From: an uncultured Streptococcus sp.
GTDB taxonomy: Bacteria > Bacillota > Bacilli > Lactobacillales > Streptococcaceae
Length of the DNA stretch: 52,333 nt
Assembly: GCA_959025735.1 (NCBI GenBank)
Contig: CAUFJQ010000001.1
Location: 1 to 52,333 of the forward strand
Direction of reading: 5' to 3'
Shown here piece after piece: positions 7,910 through 16,947 of the stretch (position 1 is its first letter; every line of letters starts with the position of its first letter). The translations under genes were made by a program, and so were the position numbers. The notes under the pieces are model-generated. The model did no database searches and was not told where the DNA came from. It saw only the letters and a program-made list of their open reading frames with translations.

Positions 7910-8443
7910 TTACCGTAACATTTTCATTAAAAATTCAGCCATTTGTTGAGGGCTTTCTTTTTTTCCGCGAGAAACCCACATTTGACAGACTCCGAAGAAG
8001 GCATTGGTCAGATAGACAGAACTGTAGACTCTTTCAATATCTGTTAATGATTTATGACTATAGCGCTCTTGCAAACTATCAACCAGAAGAATCTGTAATT
8101 TATGTCGTAAGAAGGTTTGGATCTCTTTGGTTCCATTCTCTGTCAGAAGAACTGCAAAGAGTGGCTCCTTGGTTAGGAATTCGAACACTTCTGTAATCGC
8201 TTGGCGCTTGTCGTCTTGGTGTTTGTCAAAGATATATTCAAGCTTGTGAAAGAGTGCTTGTTGGTAGCGCTCGATCATATCGTACTTGTCTCGATAGTGG
8301 GTATAAAAGCTAGAGCGACTAATGCCGGATTCTTGTGCTAACTCAACCGTTGTGATTTGGTCGAATGATTCCTTTTCTAGTAGTCGAACCATCGCCTCCT
8401 CGATATTTCGTTTTGTTTTTAATCGTTTATTGCTCTCAGTCAT
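7910..8443 (-). CDS. TetR/AcrR family transcriptional regulator
   Basis: ITTVELAQESGISRSSFYTHYRDK helix-turn-helix; divergent from yhgE/pip. Confidence 0.93.
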   Translation of the reverse strand: MTESNKRLKTKRNIEEAMVRLLEKESFDQITTVELAQESGISRSSFYTHYRDKYDMIERYQQALFHKLEYIFDKHQDDKRQAITEVFEFLTKEPLFAVLLTENGTKEIQTFLRHKLQILLVDSLQERYSHKSLTDIERVYSSVYLTNAFFGVCQMWVSRGKKESPQQMAEFLMKMLR

Positions 8444-8466
8444 CTGTTAATCCTTTTTGCACAAAA

Positions 8467-8561
8467 TTATACACAGTGTCTAAAAATAAAGATTTCCTAC
8501 TTGTGAAAATTTCTAGAAACTGTATAATCTATTATATCAGAAATTTAGACAATGTGTATAA
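8467..8561. promoter_or_regulatory. Pair of inverted 18-bp candidate TetR operators flanking the divergent promoter region
   Basis: ttatacacagtgtctaaa (8467-8484) vs tttagacaatgtgtataa (8544-8561) are reverse complements with 1 mismatch. Confidence 0.65.
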
Positions 8562-8577
8562 AAAGGAGACAAAAAAT

Positions 8578-11373
8578 ATGATGAAAGAATGGAAGGCTAT
8601 TCTTAAAAAGCCAACATTTATCATTGTCATGATTGGAGTTGCTTTGATTCCAGCTCTTTATAATATTATTTTTCTATCTTCCATGTGGGATCCATATAGC
8701 CAAGTTTCGGATCTTCCTGTAGCGGTTGTCAATAAGGATCAATCTGCTACATATAATGGACAAAAAATGGAAATCGGGAAAGACATGGTGTCCAATTTGA
8801 AGGACAATGACTCACTTGATTTTCATTTTGTAGATGAGAAAGCTGCGAAAGATGGTCTCAAAAATGGCGATTATTATATGATTGTAACCCTGCCTGAGGA
8901 TCTTTCAAAAAAAGCTAGCTCCATCTTAACCAATCATCCGGAACAGATGACCATTGATTACCAAACATCCAGTGGTCATAGTTTTATCGCAGGGAAAATG
9001 AGCGACACTGCGATGACAAAAATGAAGCAGTCAGTGGCTGAAAAAGTGACCAATACGTATACAACAGCTTTATTTTCCAAAATGGGATCGCTTAAAACTG
9101 GTATGGGGACAGCGGCAGATGGAAGTGCTAAATTAGCAGATGGTGCAAGTAAATTGGAAGATGGTGGTCAAACACTATCTACTAATTTGAATACATTGGC
9201 TCGTTCAAGCTTAGCATTTTCAGATGGTGCGACTACTCTTCGTACAGGTCTAGCAGCCTATACAGATGGTGTTGGTCAATTAGGAAATGGTCTCAATCAA
9301 ATGGCTGGTCAACTTCCAAATTTGGTATCTGGCGTCAATCAATTAAATAATGGGTTTGGTACTTTTAATACAGGCTTGATGGCTTACGCTACCGGAGTGG
9401 ATCGATTAGGAAATGGTCTCAATCAAATGGCGAGTCAAACCCCTCAGTTGGCTTCAGGAGTTGGTCGGTTAACCAGCGGTATGGGGACCCTCAATGACGG
9501 TCTTGGGAATTATACCAATGGCGTGCGTCAATTGAATTCGGGTCTATCTAACTTTTCAAATGGTTTAGTGACCTATACAAATGGCGTTGCTACTTTATCA
9601 GAGGGAGCAGGTCAATTAAGTAGTCAATCCGCTACTCTTCGAAATGGGGTTTCTCAATTAGAATCAGGTATTCAAACATTATCAAGTCAGCTACAAGCTT
9701 CTACAAGCCAATCAGCTCAGATTGATCAATTGGCAGCTGGTTTGAACCAATTAAATGCAGCGATTCAAAATGCTTCGGTAGATACCAGTCAACTTTCATC
9801 TGGCTTGACGAGTATTGCGAATTCAGCTCAATCAATCCTTGCTTCAGCCCAAGCGGATCGTGCAAATGCCCTTGCAAGTGTACAAGGGACAGCAGCCTAT
9901 CAAGCAATGACAGCTGACCAACAAGCGGAAATCAATGCGGCGATCTCATCGAGCCCAAGCTCGAGTGAAACGGCGGCTCAAGGAATCTTGACTACGATTC
10001 AAACGATCCAAAGTAGTTTGAATACAGGAAATAGCTTGACACAACTGCAAACGGCAGCCAATCAAGTTTTACCAACAGCTTCTTCTACCTTGACAGACTT
10101 GTCAAGTGGCTTGTCTAAGATCCAATCCGCAGTTAGTGGACAATTGTTGCCAGCTAGCCAAACCATCAGTCAAGGGATCGGCGCTTATACAGCTGGTGTC
10201 GATAAAATCGCTAATGGAGCAACCCAACTTCAGACGAATAGCAGTACTTTAACAAATGGGGCTAGTCAGTTAGCAGCAGGTGTTGGTCAACTAGATAGTA
10301 AATCATCAGAATTACTTGCAGGAAGCAATCAATTAGCTTCTGGTCTAGGTGAGTTAAATGGGAAGATGCCTGCCTTGACATCAGGCATGAATCAACTGGC
10401 TTCAGGAGCGACCCAATTAACAGGTAAGTCGGGTGAATTGGTTGCTGGTGCTGGAAAATTAGCTGACGGTGTAGGGCAATTGAACAGCAAAACTCCAGAG
10501 TTGGCAGGTGGTGTCAACAAACTTGTCACTGGTGTCAATCAGTTGACAGAAAAATCAGGTCAATTGGTGACTGGTGCTGATAAACTAGCCGACGGTGCAA
10601 ATCAAATCTCAGATGGGTCCAGCAAATTAGCAGCAGGTGGCCAAACATTGACAAATGGTTTAGGTGAATTAGCAACAGGAAGCCAAACCTTGAGTCAAGG
10701 ATTAAACGATGCTAAGGGACAATTGAATGTGGCTACAACTGAAAAAGAAAACGCTAAAACCTTAGCAGATCCTGTCACTTTGTCTAAAACAGACCGTGAC
10801 AATGTCCCGGTGAATGGTGTCGGAATGGCTCCTTATATGATCTCTGTAGCACTCTTTGTTTGTGCCTTGTCAACCAATATGATCTTTGCAAAATTACCAT
10901 CCGGTCGTCATCCTGAAAGTCGCTGGGCATGGTTTAAATCTCGCTTTGAGGTCAACGGAACGATTGCGGTGATTGCAGGAGTCTTGGTCTATGGTGCCGT
11001 TCACTTAATTGGTTTATCAGCTAATCATGAGATGGCTACTCTCTTCCTTTGTGTGATTGGTAGTGTGGCCTTCATGTCTATCGTGACTGCTTTGACAACA
11101 TGGCAAAGAAAGATCGGTGCTTTCCTTTCCTTGATCCTCTTGCTCTTGCAATTGGCTTCTAGTGCAGGAACCTATCCTCTGGCTTTGACAAATGGCTTTT
11201 TCCAAGCCATTCATCCATTCTTGCCAATGAGTTATACCGTTTCTGGTCTTCGTCAAACGATTTCGATGACAGGAGAAATTGGAAATCAAGTGGCCTTCCT
11301 TCTGATGACTATTGTTCTTTTTGCAGGGCTAGGAATGTGGTTCTATAATCCAAAAAAATATGAAGAGGACTAA
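8578..11373 (+). CDS. YhgE/Pip-domain membrane protein (phage infection protein/EsaA-like), 931 aa
   Basis: MWDPY...LPVAVVNKD N-domain, long xxLxxGxxQL coiled-coil repeats, C-terminal multi-TM with SSAGTYP; start moved to ATG 8578 after AAGGAG. Confidence 0.92.
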   Translation: MMKEWKAILKKPTFIIVMIGVALIPALYNIIFLSSMWDPYSQVSDLPVAVVNKDQSATYNGQKMEIGKDMVSNLKDNDSLDFHFVDEKAAKDGLKNGDYYMIVTLPEDLSKKASSILTNHPEQMTIDYQTSSGHSFIAGKMSDTAMTKMKQSVAEKVTNTYTTALFSKMGSLKTGMGTAADGSAKLADGASKLEDGGQTLSTNLNTLARSSLAFSDGATTLRTGLAAYTDGVGQLGNGLNQMAGQLPNLVSGVNQLNNGFGTFNTGLMAYATGVDRLGNGLNQMASQTPQLASGVGRLTSGMGTLNDGLGNYTNGVRQLNSGLSNFSNGLVTYTNGVATLSEGAGQLSSQSATLRNGVSQLESGIQTLSSQLQASTSQSAQIDQLAAGLNQLNAAIQNASVDTSQLSSGLTSIANSAQSILASAQADRANALASVQGTAAYQAMTADQQAEINAAISSSPSSSETAAQGILTTIQTIQSSLNTGNSLTQLQTAANQVLPTASSTLTDLSSGLSKIQSAVSGQLLPASQTISQGIGAYTAGVDKIANGATQLQTNSSTLTNGASQLAAGVGQLDSKSSELLAGSNQLASGLGELNGKMPALTSGMNQLASGATQLTGKSGELVAGAGKLADGVGQLNSKTPELAGGVNKLVTGVNQLTEKSGQLVTGADKLADGANQISDGSSKLAAGGQTLTNGLGELATGSQTLSQGLNDAKGQLNVATTEKENAKTLADPVTLSKTDRDNVPVNGVGMAPYMISVALFVCALSTNMIFAKLPSGRHPESRWAWFKSRFEVNGTIAVIAGVLVYGAVHLIGLSANHEMATLFLCVIGSVAFMSIVTALTTWQRKIGAFLSLILLLLQLASSAGTYPLALTNGFFQAIHPFLPMSYTVSGLRQTISMTGEIGNQVAFLLMTIVLFAGLGMWFYNPKKYEED

Positions 11374-11380
11374 TCTTCGG

Positions 11381-11412
11381 GAACTCCCAACAGAATGTGT
11401 TGGGAGTTTTTT
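11381..11412 (+). terminator. yhgE intrinsic terminator
   Basis: aactcccaaca-gaatg-tgttgggagtt plus T run. Confidence 0.8.
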
Positions 11413-11427
11413 GTTTCATGTGAAACA
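11412..11427. other. parS centromere-like site (ParB/Spo0J binding)
   Basis: TGTTTCATGTGAAACA, one base from the consensus TGTTTCACGTGAAACA; origin-proximal gene context. Confidence 0.8.
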
Positions 11428-11605
11428 AGAGGCTGGGACAAAAGTCCTAGCCTCTCAATTGTTTTTGGATTGTCGAGCAAGACGCAGTGGTTGAGTGGGC
11501 TCTACTACGCTGATTTCATCAGCTTTTACAGCCCTACTCAACTGTGCGGAGGTGGGACGACGAAATCGAATTCTAACGAATTACCGATTTCTGTCCCACT
11601 CTCTT
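11427..11605. repeat. 179-bp dispersed multi-hairpin repeat, copy 1
   Basis: Reverse complement of 41460-41638 with one mismatch seen; three internal stem-loops; lies between convergent genes. Confidence 0.92.
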
Positions 11606-11606
11606 A

Positions 11607-12290
11607 TTATTTAAAGAAAACAACATCAGGATTTGGAGTAATATAGAGAAGTTGGTCGTTTTCAAAGACCAGTTGGATAGTGTTGTTTTTATAGGTGTAA
11701 ATGGTGTAGTTTACTCCGAATTTAGAAGCTTGTTTGAGATCAACAGCTCCCATCAAAAAGGCGTGAGCTTGTTCCCCTGTGATTTTTCCCTCGTGGTAGA
11801 GCCCTTTAATATTTTCTAATTCGGTATTTTCAAAAGATTCGGCAATATAAGCAGGGTCTGTTATTTGTTTCTCTGGATTCCCAAGAATTGTTTGGACAAG
11901 AGCGGTGGTATATCCTTCATAATCCGGCGTCTGTGCAAAAATTTTATCGTCATTTCTAGAGTAGGCTACTTTTAGGTTCCCTGTCGCATAAATCTTATCT
12001 TTTGGAGCTTCTTGAGCATTTTTAGGGAGTCCTTCGGTCGTGACGATGTCAGAAGAGGTTTCCGTAGTAGTTGAGGGAGAGCTAGAGGAGTTGCTTGAGC
12101 TATTTGAACTGGTTGAGCGACTCGGGAGGCTAGAACGACTCGAGCTACTTTTTTTAAAGGTTTTCTTTTTTGAGCTGGTAGCAGTGGGTACTTTTTTAAA
12201 GTTGATCTTAAGGTCCGGCACACAGGCTGATAGAAAAAGAAGAGACAGCAAGAGTGTGAACAAAAGAGGTAGTGTCTGTTTTTTCATCAT
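11607..12290 (-). CDS. Hypothetical lipoprotein with Ser/Thr-rich linker
   Basis: Lipobox LSAC, poly-Ser/Thr stretch, globular C-terminal domain; RBS AAGGA. Confidence 0.75.
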   Translation of the reverse strand: MMKKQTLPLLFTLLLSLLFLSACVPDLKINFKKVPTATSSKKKTFKKSSSSRSSLPSRSTSSNSSSNSSSSPSTTTETSSDIVTTEGLPKNAQEAPKDKIYATGNLKVAYSRNDDKIFAQTPDYEGYTTALVQTILGNPEKQITDPAYIAESFENTELENIKGLYHEGKITGEQAHAFLMGAVDLKQASKFGVNYTIYTYKNNTIQLVFENDQLLYITPNPDVVFFK

Positions 12291-12340: not shown

Positions 12341-12372
12341 CAAAAAAAGGTCAGGAAGAAATCCTGCCTTTG
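12341..12372 (-). terminator. Terminator after the beta-helix lipoprotein gene
   Basis: Minus strand reads caaaggcagga-tttct-tcctgacc followed by a T run. Confidence 0.65.
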
Positions 12373-12379
12373 TTTGTTA

Positions 12380-13627
12380 TTATTGATGCCCGCCTCCAGG
12401 TCCACCGCCTTGAGGTCCGCCACCGCCTGGAGCCCCACCGCCTCCAGGCATGGAGTTGACAATTTCCGTTTGTTTTTCACCGTTGATATAGATGTCTCCG
12501 CCAGTGTAGGTAGCAGTACCATCAAAGTCGAATCCAGATTGTCCCGTTAATTTAATGGTTCCTCCGGTAACAGTGATATTTCCATTCGAATCAATTGGAT
12601 CGGTATCGCCTTGGCCAACTTCAACGTTGAGGGTTCCACCATTCATGGTGAAGAAAATTTCATCTTGGTTAGCATTAGCATTGGCTGCATTGACACCATC
12701 ATCAGTTGCGTAGATGGTGATATCACCACCGTTGATGGTGATCGATTTTCCTTCGAGACCTTCGACAGACTCTGTTACCTCATAGGTTCCGCTATCGATG
12801 ATCAGATCTCCAGAAGCATGGATTCCGTCGTCTCCTGCGGTGATGGTCATTTTGTTATCTGAAAGATACATGGTTCCGACCGAAGTATCTTCATCATTAT
12901 CCACCTTGACTGCATCTTCATCTGCATCGATGGTCATGGTCGTACCAGTGATATTGAGTTCGTCATTGACGTTGAAGGCATCTCCTACAGCCGTGATCTT
13001 ATAGGTTCCACCTGTGATATGGAGAGTGTCATTGGCCTTGATACCGTTGTTCTTCTTGGCGTCAATGTTGAGTGTACCTGAACCATTGATGGTGAGGTCG
13101 CCTTTAGAGAAGATGACCGCATCGGCATCTTCATCATTGTTTGAACTTGAATCAGACAAGGTATTGGTCGTGCCGTCTGCTAGAGTGAGGTAGACATGCC
13201 CTGCTTTCGTAGCAGAAATTGGCGCGTTGGTGTTGGTCATGGTAACGCCTTTCAAGACGATGTGAACATCATCTGAGTCACCCGCTTCGACCTTGATTTG
13301 AACCCCATCGGATTCACCAGAGATGACATAGGTTCCAGCCTTTGAGATGGTCACAGTTGATCCAGATACAGCTACGCCGTCACCTGATACACTTGCAGAC
13401 GAACCAGACAGTTTTACAGTAGAGGCTTTGCTTTCATCATAAGAGCTGTCCTTGTCCTTATCTGTAAAATAGTTGGAATTGTTTGTTTTATTTTTTGAAG
13501 TAGAAGTAGCGGTTGTTTGTGCAGTATTGCTTTTTGTAGCTGATTGTGATGACGCCTGGGTGCAAGCTGTCAGTAAGGTGAGGGTTGCGGCCCCCGTTAA
13601 TAAAAATTTCCATTTGTTTGATTTCAT
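12380..13627 (-). CDS. Cthe_2159/DUF4353-type 'carbohydrate-binding domain' beta-helix lipoprotein
   Basis: Lipobox LTAC; VTISKAGTYVISG, DAVIFSKGDLTINGSGTLNI; repeated NGIKA/DGIHA/EGLEG/DGVNA/DPIDS coils; Gly/Pro-rich tail. Confidence 0.85.
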   Translation of the reverse strand: MKSNKWKFLLTGAATLTLLTACTQASSQSATKSNTAQTTATSTSKNKTNNSNYFTDKDKDSSYDESKASTVKLSGSSASVSGDGVAVSGSTVTISKAGTYVISGESDGVQIKVEAGDSDDVHIVLKGVTMTNTNAPISATKAGHVYLTLADGTTNTLSDSSSNNDEDADAVIFSKGDLTINGSGTLNIDAKKNNGIKANDTLHITGGTYKITAVGDAFNVNDELNITGTTMTIDADEDAVKVDNDEDTSVGTMYLSDNKMTITAGDDGIHASGDLIIDSGTYEVTESVEGLEGKSITINGGDITIYATDDGVNAANANANQDEIFFTMNGGTLNVEVGQGDTDPIDSNGNITVTGGTIKLTGQSGFDFDGTATYTGGDIYINGEKQTEIVNSMPGGGGAPGGGGPQGGGPGGGHQ

Positions 13628-13660
13628 GAGCTTTTCCTCTCGTTCAATTGATATACTCCT

Positions 13661-13769
13661 AGTCTAAAGTTGCTAGCTGAAAGTTTCCTAAAGTTTTTCT
13701 GAAAGGAACCTTAACTTTAGTTTTATTTAAGTTTGGCTTAATGACCAGTTAAGAAAGTCCTATTAAACT
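13661..13769. promoter_or_regulatory. Divergent promoters with mirror arrays of 11-bp-phased half-sites (OmpR/CiaR-type)
   Basis: Minus-strand sites at + CTGAA 13677, CTAAA 13688, CTGAA 13699, CTTAA 13710, with -10 TAGACT (13666-13661). Plus-strand TTTAG 13716, TTAAG 13727, TTAAT 13738, TTAAG 13749, with -10 TAAACT (13764-13769). Both -10 boxes lie 10 bp from the last site. Confidence 0.7.
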
Positions 13770-13841
13770 AGAAAGCACGTAAGTCGTATTCATACTTACT
13801 GAAGGTTAGAAACAATAGATCCCCCTTAAAGGAGAAGAAAC

Positions 13842-14621
13842 ATGAAAAAAACAATTGAGACAAGTTTCAAACGAATCGAAACAAAATATATCGTCGCAAA
13901 AGATGACGTGAAGGACTTGATCAAAGACTTAAAAGAATACGTCGTAGAAGATGATTACCCAACCTCAACCATTTCAAACATTTATTTTGATACAGAAAAT
14001 TTTGATGTCATTCAAGATGCTCTTGCCAAACAACACCGCCGTGAAAAAATTCGGATGCGGACTTATATAGAAAAACCTCAAGCAGACAGTCCAGTGTTTC
14101 TAGAGGTGAAGTCAAAAGATGAAGAAGGAATTGGCCATAAATTCCGCCTAGTCGCCACTTCACAAGCCATTATCAACTTGATGACAGATGGGAAAGTAGA
14201 TCATCAGATACAAGATCCAGACTTAGTGCAAGAGATTCAGAGATTGCGCAAACGTTATGGTCATCGATTGGAACCACGGATGTTCATTTACTATGATCGC
14301 TTGTCTCTCAAAGAAAAGAAATCCATTCAGGGTTATCCTTATCAGAAGATTCGCGTGACAATCGATCAAAACTTAGTCTTTCGAGATCAGGCTGTTAGCC
14401 TTTTTGATGGGAAGAAAGGAGAACCTCTACTAGAGGATGACTTCGTGATCATGGAAATTAAGGCTCCTGGGCAAGAACCTAAATGGCTAAAGGATATTTT
14501 AGATAAGTACGGACTGGTCAAACAGAAATTTTCAAAATATAGCTGTGCTTATCATAAATCACAAGGCTTGGATTATGCCCCAAGACCAGTTCAAGAAACG
14601 GTAGGTGCTGCCTATGTCTAA
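13842..14621 (+). CDS. VTC-domain (CYTH/TTM tunnel) polyphosphate-polymerase-like protein
   Basis: RIETKY, SNIYFDT, REKIRMRTY, FLEVKSK, YDR, RVTIDQNL, IMEIK, FSKY motifs. Confidence 0.88.
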   Translation: MKKTIETSFKRIETKYIVAKDDVKDLIKDLKEYVVEDDYPTSTISNIYFDTENFDVIQDALAKQHRREKIRMRTYIEKPQADSPVFLEVKSKDEEGIGHKFRLVATSQAIINLMTDGKVDHQIQDPDLVQEIQRLRKRYGHRLEPRMFIYYDRLSLKEKKSIQGYPYQKIRVTIDQNLVFRDQAVSLFDGKKGEPLLEDDFVIMEIKAPGQEPKWLKDILDKYGLVKQKFSKYSCAYHKSQGLDYAPRPVQETVGAAYV

Positions 14622-15297
14622 TCTATTTGATTCTATTTTTAATAATGCCACAGCAACGGTGGATCCCTTGCGCTTACTGCTGGCCCTTTTGGTCAGCCTC
14701 TTTCTAGGGCTGGCCCTATCTTGGACCTATAAATACCGAACACTTTACACTCGAGAGTTTGTCATTAGTTTGACCTTGCTTCCTTGTATGATGACCTTAG
14801 TGATCTTTTTGGTCAATGGAAGTTTGGGAACCTCGATTGCAGTGGCAGGGACCTTTAGTTTGATCCGTTTTCGTTCGGCTACGAGTGGTTCGAGAGAGTT
14901 GATTGCCATTTTCTTAGCCATGATTATAGGACTGGCAGCAGGTTCGGGCTATCTTTTATTGGCCATTTTATCAACTCTCTCTTTACTAGGGGTGTGGCTG
15001 GTATTAGAGAACAAACAGAGTAAGGCAGACCATCAACGGCGCCGTCATTTGACCATTACCGTCTCAAAACAAGATTCTGTTGCAGAACAAATCAGCCAGT
15101 TGTTGGACCAAAGTTGTTCAGAGATTGACTTTATTTCTGTCACAACGGCCCAAGCTGGAGAACAACTGACCTTGAACTACGAGGTAAATATGAAATCGAA
15201 CATCGATGATTTTGCTCTTGCCAATCTATTGATTAGCAAGATTGAAAATTGTGATGTTGCTCTGACAAAGAAAGCGAAGAAAAGAAAGAATTTATAA
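14614..15297 (+). CDS. DUF4956-family membrane protein (MgtC-like TM domain plus soluble C-terminal domain)
   Basis: Several TM helices, AGTFSLIRFRS, GLAAGSGY; ATG 14614 overlaps the end of the VTC gene. Confidence 0.82.
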   Translation: MSNLFDSIFNNATATVDPLRLLLALLVSLFLGLALSWTYKYRTLYTREFVISLTLLPCMMTLVIFLVNGSLGTSIAVAGTFSLIRFRSATSGSRELIAIFLAMIIGLAAGSGYLLLAILSTLSLLGVWLVLENKQSKADHQRRRHLTITVSKQDSVAEQISQLLDQSCSEIDFISVTTAQAGEQLTLNYEVNMKSNIDDFALANLLISKIENCDVALTKKAKKRKNL

Positions 15298-15330
15298 CTG
15301 CTATCCTACTTTAGGATAGTTTTTTAGGGT

Positions 15331-15362
15331 TTTAAGAACTTTTTAAGAAAAAGTGGTATACT
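15331..15362 (+). promoter_or_regulatory. Promoter with a perfect CiaR-type direct repeat
   Basis: TTTAAG-aactt-TTTAAG (15331-15347), 9 bp before TATACT (15357-15362, TG-extended). Confidence 0.6.
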
Positions 15363-15389
15363 GTTTCTAAAAAATTGAAGGAATCCCTT

Positions 15390-16649
15390 ATGAAAAAGAC
15401 TGCTATTTTTGAAGATGTCGTCTCTATTATGACCCATGATTCATCTACCATCAAGGATCGAAAAGGATGCGATCCAGAGCCTTTTCGAGAAAACATTACA
15501 GATGATATGACAGATGATGCCTTTCTCTATCAAGTTAAGACTTACCTAGCTAGTTTTGGGGTGATCGGGCATATTTCCTTTCGAGATAAAAAGGCCAGTC
15601 AAAAAGGGTTCCTTTTGAGAATAAATGGACAGAAATTGTATGTTGAGGAAGCTAATGAAGATACGGGTCTTCAAGTAGGAGATCAGATCCTAGCTCTGGA
15701 TGGAAGTGACTTGGATCAGATAGCTTCTCTTCATAAAGACTATTTTATCAGCAAGACCCCTGAAAGACACTACCGAGAATGGGCAGATTTGGTCTCTCAG
15801 TCAACGAGTGTCACCCTGCTTCGAGAAGGGATAGAAAAGACCATTGAAGTAGTCCCTAGTCGAGAACCGATCCAGGATCATATTTTTTGGAAACGATTAG
15901 ACGATGAGATTCTTTATCTTCGTCTGGATAATTTTATGGATGAAGGAGCCATTAGTCGGGTATATCAAGAGTGTTTGCCGATGATGACGGAGGTCAAGTT
16001 TCTTCTCATTGATGTCCGACAGAACGGCGGAGGGACGGATTCTCTATATCTTCCTCTGTTACATCTAGGCTTAGAGAAGGATCAGGGCTATGATTCGCTT
16101 GACTGGGACGATGATGGTATGGAAATTCTCTACACGGAACGTAATGTTGATCTGCGCTTGAAAGACTTTGAGGACTGGATGCAACAGGAAGAAATTAGTC
16201 CTGAAACAGTCAAGCTGCTTGGAGATATGAAAGAGGAGTTGCTCCGCCATCGAGGCAAAGGTTATGTACTGTATCAGCAAGAAAGCGAGGAATTCTTCCC
16301 AGAGGTTAAAGGTGGCCACTATCCTGAACGGATCTTTGTCTTATCAGATATCTATTGCGGTTCTTCTGGCGACAACTTTGTTCAGATGATGAAGCAGTTT
16401 AAGAAGGTAACGGTGGTAGGTAGACCGACTCTCGGAATTTTAGACTATTCCAATTGTTGTACCGTTGATTATGGCGATTATCAATTGATGTTTCCTACTT
16501 CTCGTTGTCTATGCGTAGATCAAGGTAAAGGAATGACGGATCAAGGTGTTCTACCCGATATAGAGATTCCTTGGACACCTAGCCATTTCGAGAGAGATGT
16601 GGATCTGGACAAGTGTCTGGAGTTGATTCATCAGGGGACTGTGAAATAG
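15390..16649 (+). CDS. S41 family (C-terminal processing-type) peptidase with PDZ-like segment, no signal peptide
   Basis: GLQVGDQIL, IDVRQNGGG, CGSSGD, VVGRPTLG, GVLPD motifs; ATG 15390 after AAGGA. Confidence 0.85.
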   Translation: MKKTAIFEDVVSIMTHDSSTIKDRKGCDPEPFRENITDDMTDDAFLYQVKTYLASFGVIGHISFRDKKASQKGFLLRINGQKLYVEEANEDTGLQVGDQILALDGSDLDQIASLHKDYFISKTPERHYREWADLVSQSTSVTLLREGIEKTIEVVPSREPIQDHIFWKRLDDEILYLRLDNFMDEGAISRVYQECLPMMTEVKFLLIDVRQNGGGTDSLYLPLLHLGLEKDQGYDSLDWDDDGMEILYTERNVDLRLKDFEDWMQQEEISPETVKLLGDMKEELLRHRGKGYVLYQQESEEFFPEVKGGHYPERIFVLSDIYCGSSGDNFVQMMKQFKKVTVVGRPTLGILDYSNCCTVDYGDYQLMFPTSRCLCVDQGKGMTDQGVLPDIEIPWTPSHFERDVDLDKCLELIHQGTVK

Positions 16650-16818: not shown

Positions 16819-16947
16819 ATGAAACATAAAACACTTTATAAATTTATCGGGCAGACGGTCTTGTATTTCGCCATTTTCCTAGCCCTACTTTATTTCTTTA
16901 GTTACCTTGGTCAAGGTCAGGGTGGCTTTATCTACAACGAATTTTAG
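16819..16947 (+). CDS. dltX: DltX small membrane protein (42 aa; absent from the ORF track)
   Basis: Manual translation MKHKTLYKFIGQTVLYFAIFLALLYFFSYLGQGQGGFIYNEF*; FIYNEF tail; directly upstream of dltA. Confidence 0.93.
   Translation: MKHKTLYKFIGQTVLYFAIFLALLYFFSYLGQGQGGFIYNEF

Follow-up and report, generated by a model that had tools for sequence, protein, structure and literature searches.

Can a streptococcus make polyphosphate (polyP) without a polyphosphate kinase and deliver it to its own surface? Bacterial polyP is credited to PPK1 and PPK2, and the question was raised by three genes of an uncultured Streptococcus sp., which encode a VTC-domain enzyme, a DUF4956 membrane protein and a divergently oriented lipoprotein of the Cthe_2159 family. 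They lie on a stretch of 52,333 nucleotides (nt; positions 1 to 52,333 of contig CAUFJQ010000001.1, assembly GCA_959025735.1), hereafter the window. A sequence-only reading of the window had proposed that the three products make polyP, pass it across the membrane and capture it outside with Ca2+. The three open reading frames were found where that reading had placed them, and their families were confirmed by Pfam (VTC, PF09359, E 3.1e-41; DUF4956, PF16316, E 2.2e-17; Cthe_2159, PF14262, E 2.5e-66). The module is real and conserved.

The enzyme was assigned by profile, fold and active-site residues. When the Protein Data Bank (PDB) was searched with a profile of 80 homologues, Vtc4, Vtc2 and Vtc3 were the sole matches at E ≤ 10 (best 7.5e-23), and in a Foldseek search with the predicted model (pLDDT 93) Vtc2/3/4 chains came within the top 11, above ygiF and AtTTM3. 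R11, K15, R71, R73, K90 and K100 aligned with R196, K200, R264, R266, K281 and K294 of Vtc4 (full-length numbering), and Y151, R153, R171, E205, K207 and K232 with Y359, R361, R373, E426, K428 and K458, respectively. These positions were invariant or at least 90% conserved in the 80 sequences, K15, R71, R73, K90, E205 and K232 being invariant, and K200 and K281 are key residues of Vtc4. R264, R266 and E426 are the residues mutated for inactivation of VTC (PMC9911596), and K458 is catalytic in Vtc4, while its counterpart in AtTTM3 is of little importance (PMC4641920). The conservation, the alignment and the Foldseek ranking bear out the Vtc4-type active site that the sequence-only reading had suggested, and the motifs it had quoted are present in the translations. 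One correction concerns the first motif, which is R11-x-E13-x-K15, not the ExExK of the hydrolytic CYTH/TTM enzymes; the second is E205-x-K207. The protein is a single domain with neither an SPX domain nor membrane helices.

Hydrolytic tunnel enzymes have a second metal site of three glutamates that is absent from Vtc4, and AtTTM3 shares the tunnel and makes no polyP (PMC4641920). When these glutamate positions were mapped by motif spacing, with the AtTTM3 E90 position left out, two were basic in the enzyme here (R11 and K207) and E13 was acidic. Since the mapped catalytic residues of Vtc4 are kept and two of the three site-2 glutamates are lost, polymerase or transferase chemistry is likely. 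Judged by its sequence, the enzyme is a bacterial sister of yeast Vtc4, and we consider it fairly probable that its product is polyP.

In agreement with the PPK-independence proposed before, searches of this genome, which is 87% complete, returned no PPK1, PPK2, PPX or CotH. Of 160 streptococcal genomes, one had PPK1 and 87 had VTC; as streptococci mostly lack PPK1, a commensal streptococcus would offer a clean background for PPK-independent polyP. Extracellular polyP has been described in B. cereus in a 2026 preprint, with the pathway unknown and, according to its own authors, without a VTC4 homologue (PMC13484657). In Gram-positive pel loci, genes for CotH, a polyP polymerase and DUF4956 were recorded as accessory genes with no explanation (10.1101/768473), NELoc-2 of C. 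perfringens is reported to contain VTC and CotH genes (PMC2879425), and further mentions of the module genes are single rows or sentences (PMC13454231, PMC5817204, PMC10503014, PMC11980242). The gene set with CotH is already known, and the form with a Cthe_2159 lipoprotein is a variant of it. Neither a functional study of a bacterial VTC module nor a paper joining CiaR, polyphosphate polymerase and Streptococcus was found in a literature search that left subscription journals mostly outside its coverage.

The gene content of other genomes was then used to define the module. Of 300 Bacillota genomes searched, 50 had VTC and 51 had DUF4956, which was present in every one of the 50 with VTC; the extra DUF4956 match was below the cut-off. 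At E ≤ 1e-30, Cthe_2159 was present in 20 of the 50 VTC-positive and 0 of the 250 VTC-negative genomes, so that all 20 Cthe_2159-positive genomes have VTC, in a sample whose related genomes are not independent. In a first set of 78 loci (58 of 60 places for the phylum and 20 streptococcal places picked for diversity), DUF4956 was found in 75, two of the misses lying at contig ends. The third gene within about 8 kb encoded CotH in 39 loci, Cthe_2159 in 18 and an LTD-containing protein without CotH in 5; none of these was seen in 16, and CotH and Cthe_2159 never occurred together. For the main CotH cluster, which has 39 proteins, Pfam confirmed CotH in 31. A second set comprised 80 further named loci, mostly from Paenibacillus and clostridia, of which 72 had enough flank to be counted: all 72 had DUF4956, 51 had Cthe_2159, 7 had CotH and none had both. 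In most of these 51 loci, the Cthe_2159 gene of Paenibacillus and clostridia lies on the same strand, directly 3′ of DUF4956. A quick tree of 84 rows gave at least 6 changes of partner between CotH and Cthe_2159; it carries a long-branch warning at its base, leaves out the loci without either partner and has its Paenibacillus rows thinned. These neighbourhood counts indicated that the core is the VTC–DUF4956 pair with an exchangeable exported partner. A single replacement of CotH by the beta-helix, as a first tree with a CotH-free clade had implied, was rejected when the 80 added loci put CotH inside that clade.

Across the 160 streptococcal genomes, VTC was present in 87 and the lipoprotein in 113 (117 matches minus 4 weak-only); 84 genomes had both, 29 only the lipoprotein and 3 only VTC. 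As read from the tables, the genes were linked in about 70 of the 84 and unlinked in 14. Of the triad proposed by the sequence-only reading, the tight VTC–DUF4956 pairing and the genome-level link to the beta-helix (20/20) therefore stand, while a fixed set of three does not, as the lipoprotein occurs without VTC in 29 of 113 genomes and CotH takes its place in many loci. The neighbourhood survey suggested by that reading, with CotH and two-component systems included, showed that VTC and DUF4956 co-occur, that CotH and Cthe_2159 alternate and that a CiaR-like pair is often adjacent; the interchange with CotH and the CiaR-type promoters described below had not figured in that reading.

Control searches for VTC, DUF4956 and CotH all gave matches in Bacteroides thetaiotaomicron, Corynebacterium glutamicum and Methanosarcina acetivorans. 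A plasmid search returned 3 records, two of them megabase-sized, and no plasmid-borne module was evident among them. A second streptococcal VTC–DUF4956 pair was seen downstream of BlaI-like and BlaR1/M56 peptidase genes, with no CiaR-type box (L006, L008). One contig labelled as a Bathyarchaeia metagenome-assembled genome (L110) carries DUF4956, Cthe_2159 and a VTC protein 75% identical to the Paenibacillus type; the label is likely a binning error.

The DUF4956 protein was modelled with five hydrophobic helices and an ACT-like domain (pLDDT 79). G79, R87 and G106 are invariant among its homologues, only basic residues occur at position 85 and only acidic ones at position 95, and the two VTC groups of the first locus sample show a consistent difference in the third helix. 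The likeness to MgtC claimed before proved real by profile evidence, but distant: PF02308 (MgtC) matched 23 of 76 homologues (best E 1.1e-5), the protein of this locus had no PF02308 match at E ≤ 0.05, and its match to NCBIfam PRK09977 (E 7.5e-4, 19 bits) fell below the cut-off of 214. Fold searches returned almost only ACT-type domains, the ACT domain dominating them and the membrane part being barely probed. The C-terminal domain of MgtC matched the model with a Z of 8.7 and a root-mean-square deviation of 3.0 over 86 aligned residues, tied with many ACT domains; an Atlas search with the membrane part was uninformative (best 0.79). A channel role for DUF4956 would follow by analogy with yeast and from its linkage to VTC.

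The lipoprotein matched PDB 4peu by profile (E 2.3e-60), and C22 was invariant across 18 aligned homologues. Its core has 48 Asp/Glu vs. 14 Lys/Arg residues, and 19 of its 22 conserved charged positions are acidic, the rest being K5 (in the signal peptide), K175 and H270. Another member of the family, Cthe_2159 itself, reportedly binds Ca2+ and acidic polysaccharides, as found in a structure study.

Both divergent promoters carry hexamers at an 11-bp period, the last one 10 bp before a −10-like hexamer, and this layout is kept in related streptococci. CiaR-activated promoters have a TTTAAG-N5-TTTAAG repeat 10 bp before the −10 element (PMC3091779, PMC6560143). The box, a degenerate form, scored 13 of 18 at each promoter, a value also reached by 23 of 263 background regions, with a third in-phase repeat at 5–6 of 6; the middle repeat of the VTC promoter (CTTAAT) lacks the G called near-invariant in PMC3091779. 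A plain consensus search of the window gave 4 matches vs. 2.2 expected, which is not significant alone, and the significance of the boxes comes from their spacing to the −10 and their conservation. In a genome scan, 19 sites scored at least 13 and 12 remained under a stricter rule, both module promoters among them; other stricter-rule sites precede an HtrA-type protease, two Rfam csRNAs, the cia operon, a GT2-GtrA gene and a DUF1002 gene, and two more candidate leaders (C86, C61) had no Rfam match.

Outside Streptococcus, an OmpR-type regulator pair often adjoins the module. All 12 loci in which the regulator most resembles the CiaR of this genome had box scores of at least 13, compared with the background given above, and all 9 loci with other OmpR-type regulators had scores of at most 11; a LuxR-type regulator and a streptococcal one were not counted here. 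In a second set, rich in Paenibacillus, scores of at least 14 were reached in 46 of 46 loci with such a regulator and in 15 of 28 without one in view. None of the adjacent regulators tested matched an NCBIfam family above its cut-off; they are called CiaR-like because of their best matches to the CiaR of this genome (37–46% identity) and their recognition helix. These motif data suggested that CiaR probably activates both divergent promoters.

Some further promoters were seen. A gene for a Gln-rich, membrane-anchored protein of about 180 aa lies between a box and ciaR in this genome (L189, G000:C112). In L151, L153, L156, L161, L164, L168 and L175, the VTC promoters have TATCAC/TGTCAC-type repeats at the same spacing, some of them beside a different OmpR-type regulator. 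These repeats, which resemble Pho boxes, may mean that the module was rewired there to another two-component system.

From these data the three proteins may, tentatively, be read as a chain that carries polyP from synthesis through export to the surface. CiaR would switch on both divergent promoters under envelope stress, as its motif suggests. The basic tunnel would take up Mn/Mg-ATP at E205, K232 standing by alignment where Vtc4 has its catalytic K458, and, in the manner of yeast Vtc4, the enzyme would lengthen a phosphate chain with the terminal phosphate of ATP. DUF4956 would hold the enzyme at the membrane and pass the chain outward, a putative oligomer being the path by analogy; its small-residue third helix closes, on what is predicted to be the cytoplasmic side, with a pair of invariant basic residues. 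ATP is presumably scarce beyond the membrane, and there the product could act as a phosphoryl donor or as a cation-bound polyanion. The lipoprotein would be the cation-loaded outside partner, in the slot taken by a CotH kinase in other genomes, and in the weakest step its beta-helix would handle the product via bound Ca2+, possibly as an enzyme on wall glycans, because GT2-GtrA and phosphodiester-glycosidase genes recur nearby. The furthest extension of this reading is doubtful: that bacteria own an export-coupled polyP polymerase, built of VTC and an MgtC-like channel, which feeds phosphoryl groups outside, with Cthe_2159 as a Ca2+-dependent, polyP-using enzyme replacing CotH and the module as an ancestral CiaRH-type target. 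If polyP synthesis is true, it would suggest a phosphoryl donor source for exported CotH kinases, assign a function to the Cthe_2159 proteins and extend CiaRH by an envelope-phosphate branch.

Several findings weigh against the export chain. In the enzyme, E13 stands in the place of Thr198 of Vtc4, nothing in Vtc4 corresponds to K69, and the gene is split or carries stops in several streptococci. In the membrane protein, the conserved basic residues are located where a helix ends rather than along a membrane helix, and the families listed for 76 members (25 of 28) include no DUF202/Vtc1 match. As almost all conserved charges of the lipoprotein are acidic, direct binding of polyP is unlikely without cation bridges, which weakens the capture proposed by the sequence-only reading. 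In the 12 inspected lipoprotein-only loci, from among the genomes that have the lipoprotein without VTC, there was no VTC or DUF4956 remnant and the box was kept at a score of 13–14; the ratio of nonsynonymous to synonymous substitution rates (dN/dS) was 0.08 and 0.054 in two groups holding 11 of the 12 genes. Retention under purifying selection without VTC therefore indicated a role independent of a local VTC. In four loci, VTC immediately precedes the lipoprotein gene and no DUF4956 match was found; VTC is intact in 3 of them, and these genomes have a second VTC copy. Finally, in RNA sequencing of a ciaR mutant of S. sanguinis, the VTC gene SSA_2342 was at 0.43-fold with q = 1, and at about 1 on complementation; SSA_2340, which gene order in similar genomes suggests to be the lipoprotein gene, was at 0.44-fold and about 1 on complementation, also with q = 1 (PMC5719415). 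Both falls are in the direction expected of activation by CiaR, but neither is significant.

It is unlikely, though the most probable of the alternatives, that polyP stays cytoplasmic at the membrane, with DUF4956 as an MgtC-like anchor or regulator through its ACT domain and the lipoprotein as a co-regulated buffer of wall Ca2+/Mn2+. The MgtC kinship, the ACT domain and the absence of a channel homologue among the matches found suit this explanation, as does an acidic lipoprotein kept without VTC. Transcription does so too: in stranded RNA reads from a close relative (2 raw-read runs of one study), the lipoprotein was covered on the minus strand at a depth of about 50–600 and VTC-DUF4956 on the plus strand at about 40–140, falling below 10 across the final third of DUF4956, so that the lipoprotein is transcribed separately and several-fold more strongly, with almost no reads between the two divergent units. 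However, the alternation of CotH and beta-helix in one slot, and the presence of VTC in all 20 Cthe-positive Bacillota genomes, are left unexplained by it.

A further alternative, which is rather unlikely, is that the enzyme works as a phosphotransferase or hydrolase akin to Vtc4 but yields something other than polyP, such as a short chain, a phosphorylated sugar or a lipid carrier, which DUF4956 would present for the modification of wall glycans. GT2-GtrA and NAGPA phosphodiester glycosidase genes, joined by a small membrane protein gene in streptococci, form a unit that follows a CiaR-type box here (L191, G000:C118) and stands beside the lipoprotein or the VTC pair in other genomes (L007, L016, L096, L097, L116, L124, L131, L148); their recurrence near the module and behind the box suggested wall-glycan chemistry. 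The GT2-GtrA box in this genome, modules within pel and GT2 loci, the retained E13 and the polyP-free tunnel of AtTTM3 fit such a product, whereas the loss of two of the three site-2 glutamates and the invariant K458 equivalent fit a polymerase.

An inward flow appears quite unlikely, in which the lipoprotein captures polyP, calcium phosphate or a phosphorylated glycan, DUF4956 imports it and VTC salvages it (ATP from ADP, or phosphate release). The excess of lipoprotein over membrane part in transcription, as in uptake systems, the NAGPA genes close to the module (4 streptococcal loci and 5 others), and a different repeat with a PhoB/YycF-like regulator in some loci agree with import; the commonest partner is a kinase (CotH), however, the box here is CiaR-type and Vtc4 runs in the synthetic direction. 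That the lipoprotein is a mere neighbour in the CiaR regulon without a mechanistic tie to VTC-DUF4956 is very unlikely. Its divergent, separate transcript, its unlinked position in 14 of 84 streptococci with both and its retention alone in 29 speak for this; its place directly 3′ of DUF4956 in most of the 51 loci of Paenibacillus and clostridia, the strict co-occurrence in the Bacillota sample and the alternation with CotH speak against it.

Features of the module and its flanks in the window, with positions counted from its first letter.
Feature	Position	Strand	Description
Cthe_2159-family beta-helix lipoprotein	12380..13627	-	415 aa; lipobox Cys22; conserved Asp/Glu ladders; Gly/Pro tail
CiaR-type repeats, 11-bp period (GTTAAG, TTTCAG, CTTTAG, TTTCAG)	13661..13715	-	10 bp before -10-like TAGACT; predicted lipoprotein promoter
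CiaR-type repeats (TTTAAG, CTTAAT, GTTAAG)	13726..13769	+	10 bp before -10-like TAAACT; predicted VTC-DUF4956 promoter
VTC-domain tunnel enzyme	13842..14621	+	259 aa; Vtc4-type active site (R11, K15, R71, R73, K90, Y151, R153, R171, E205, K207, K232)
DUF4956 membrane protein	14614..15297	+	227 aa; five predicted membrane helices; G79-x2-S82-x2-R85-F86-R87 motif; C-terminal ACT-like domain; MgtC-related
Terminator-like hairpin 3′ of DUF4956	15300..15320	+	
Weak terminator-like hairpin 3′ of lipoprotein	12352..12366	-	

The start of DUF4956 is probably the ATG at 14614, which gives an 8-nt overlap with the VTC stop, because close homologues mostly have 227 aa. Pairwise dN/dS vs. one close relative was 0.075 for VTC, 0.039 for DUF4956 and 0.186 for the lipoprotein; more distant VTC comparisons gave no usable pairs, and the named homologues are nearly all streptococcal. 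Downstream of the module, a perfect TTTAAG-N5-TTTAAG stands at 15331-15362, 9 bp before TATACT and ahead of an S41/PDZ peptidase gene (15375-16649), which is possibly a further CiaR target. Beyond this gene lie dltX (16819-16947) and then dltA; the proximity of dlt noted by the sequence-only reading is correct for this locus, but the neighbourhood is not conserved elsewhere, and coupling to dlt was rejected, as a near relative and one further locus were the only cases seen with dlt beside the module. On the other side, genes for a TetR regulator, a YhgE/Pip protein and a DUF4947 lipoprotein occupy 7910-12290; TetR and YhgE/Pip genes also lie upstream of VTC-lipoprotein loci without DUF4956 (L180, L181, L183). 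A short palindromic intergenic element at about 11427-11605, where RNA reads pile up to a depth above 20,000 with many loose ends, had no Rfam match and is probably a dispersed streptococcal repeat.

Compared with known systems, the promoters share the repeat layout of the CiaRH regulon, and the same scan detects the htrA-like, csRNA, cia-operon, GT2 and DUF1002 promoters of this genome; unlike that regulon, the boxes here are degenerate three- and four-repeat forms, and no VTC gene appears in the portions examined of the pneumococcal regulon table (PMC3091779). The lipoprotein belongs to the family of Cthe_2159 (PDB 4peu/4phb), with a PF14262 domain and conserved Asp/Glu. Like MgtC/SapB proteins, DUF4956 joins a membrane domain to a C-terminal ACT-like domain and gives weak profile matches to them, while it is a distinct Pfam family with a conserved basic-Phe-Arg motif and near-fixed linkage to VTC. 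With the hydrolytic TTM/CYTH enzymes (AtTTM3, E. coli ygiF, Cet1, CyaB) the VTC enzyme shares the tunnel fold and the site-1 glutamate, whereas its second-metal acidic patch is mostly basic and no profile match to them was obtained at E ≤ 10.

Similar to the gene sets of pel loci and NELoc-2, the module combines a VTC gene, a membrane-protein gene and an exported third protein. In contrast to them, the third protein here is a Cthe_2159 lipoprotein, no pel genes are adjacent, CotH was not found in the 87% complete genome, and the VTC protein falls in a separate, well-supported clade. The yeast VTC complex (Vtc4/Vtc3/Vtc1; PDB 3g3q, 3g3r, 7ytj, 8i6v) has in common with the module the catalytic tunnel domain, the mapped residues and the combination of an enzyme with a small membrane protein. 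However, the bacterial enzyme lacks SPX and membrane helices and has Glu13 for Thr198, and its membrane partner is MgtC-related, carries an ACT domain and shows no DUF202 match among the families listed, with an outside partner and probable two-component control added. By sequence comparison, therefore, the module probably resembles yeast VTC at the catalytic step, yet stands outside that complex.

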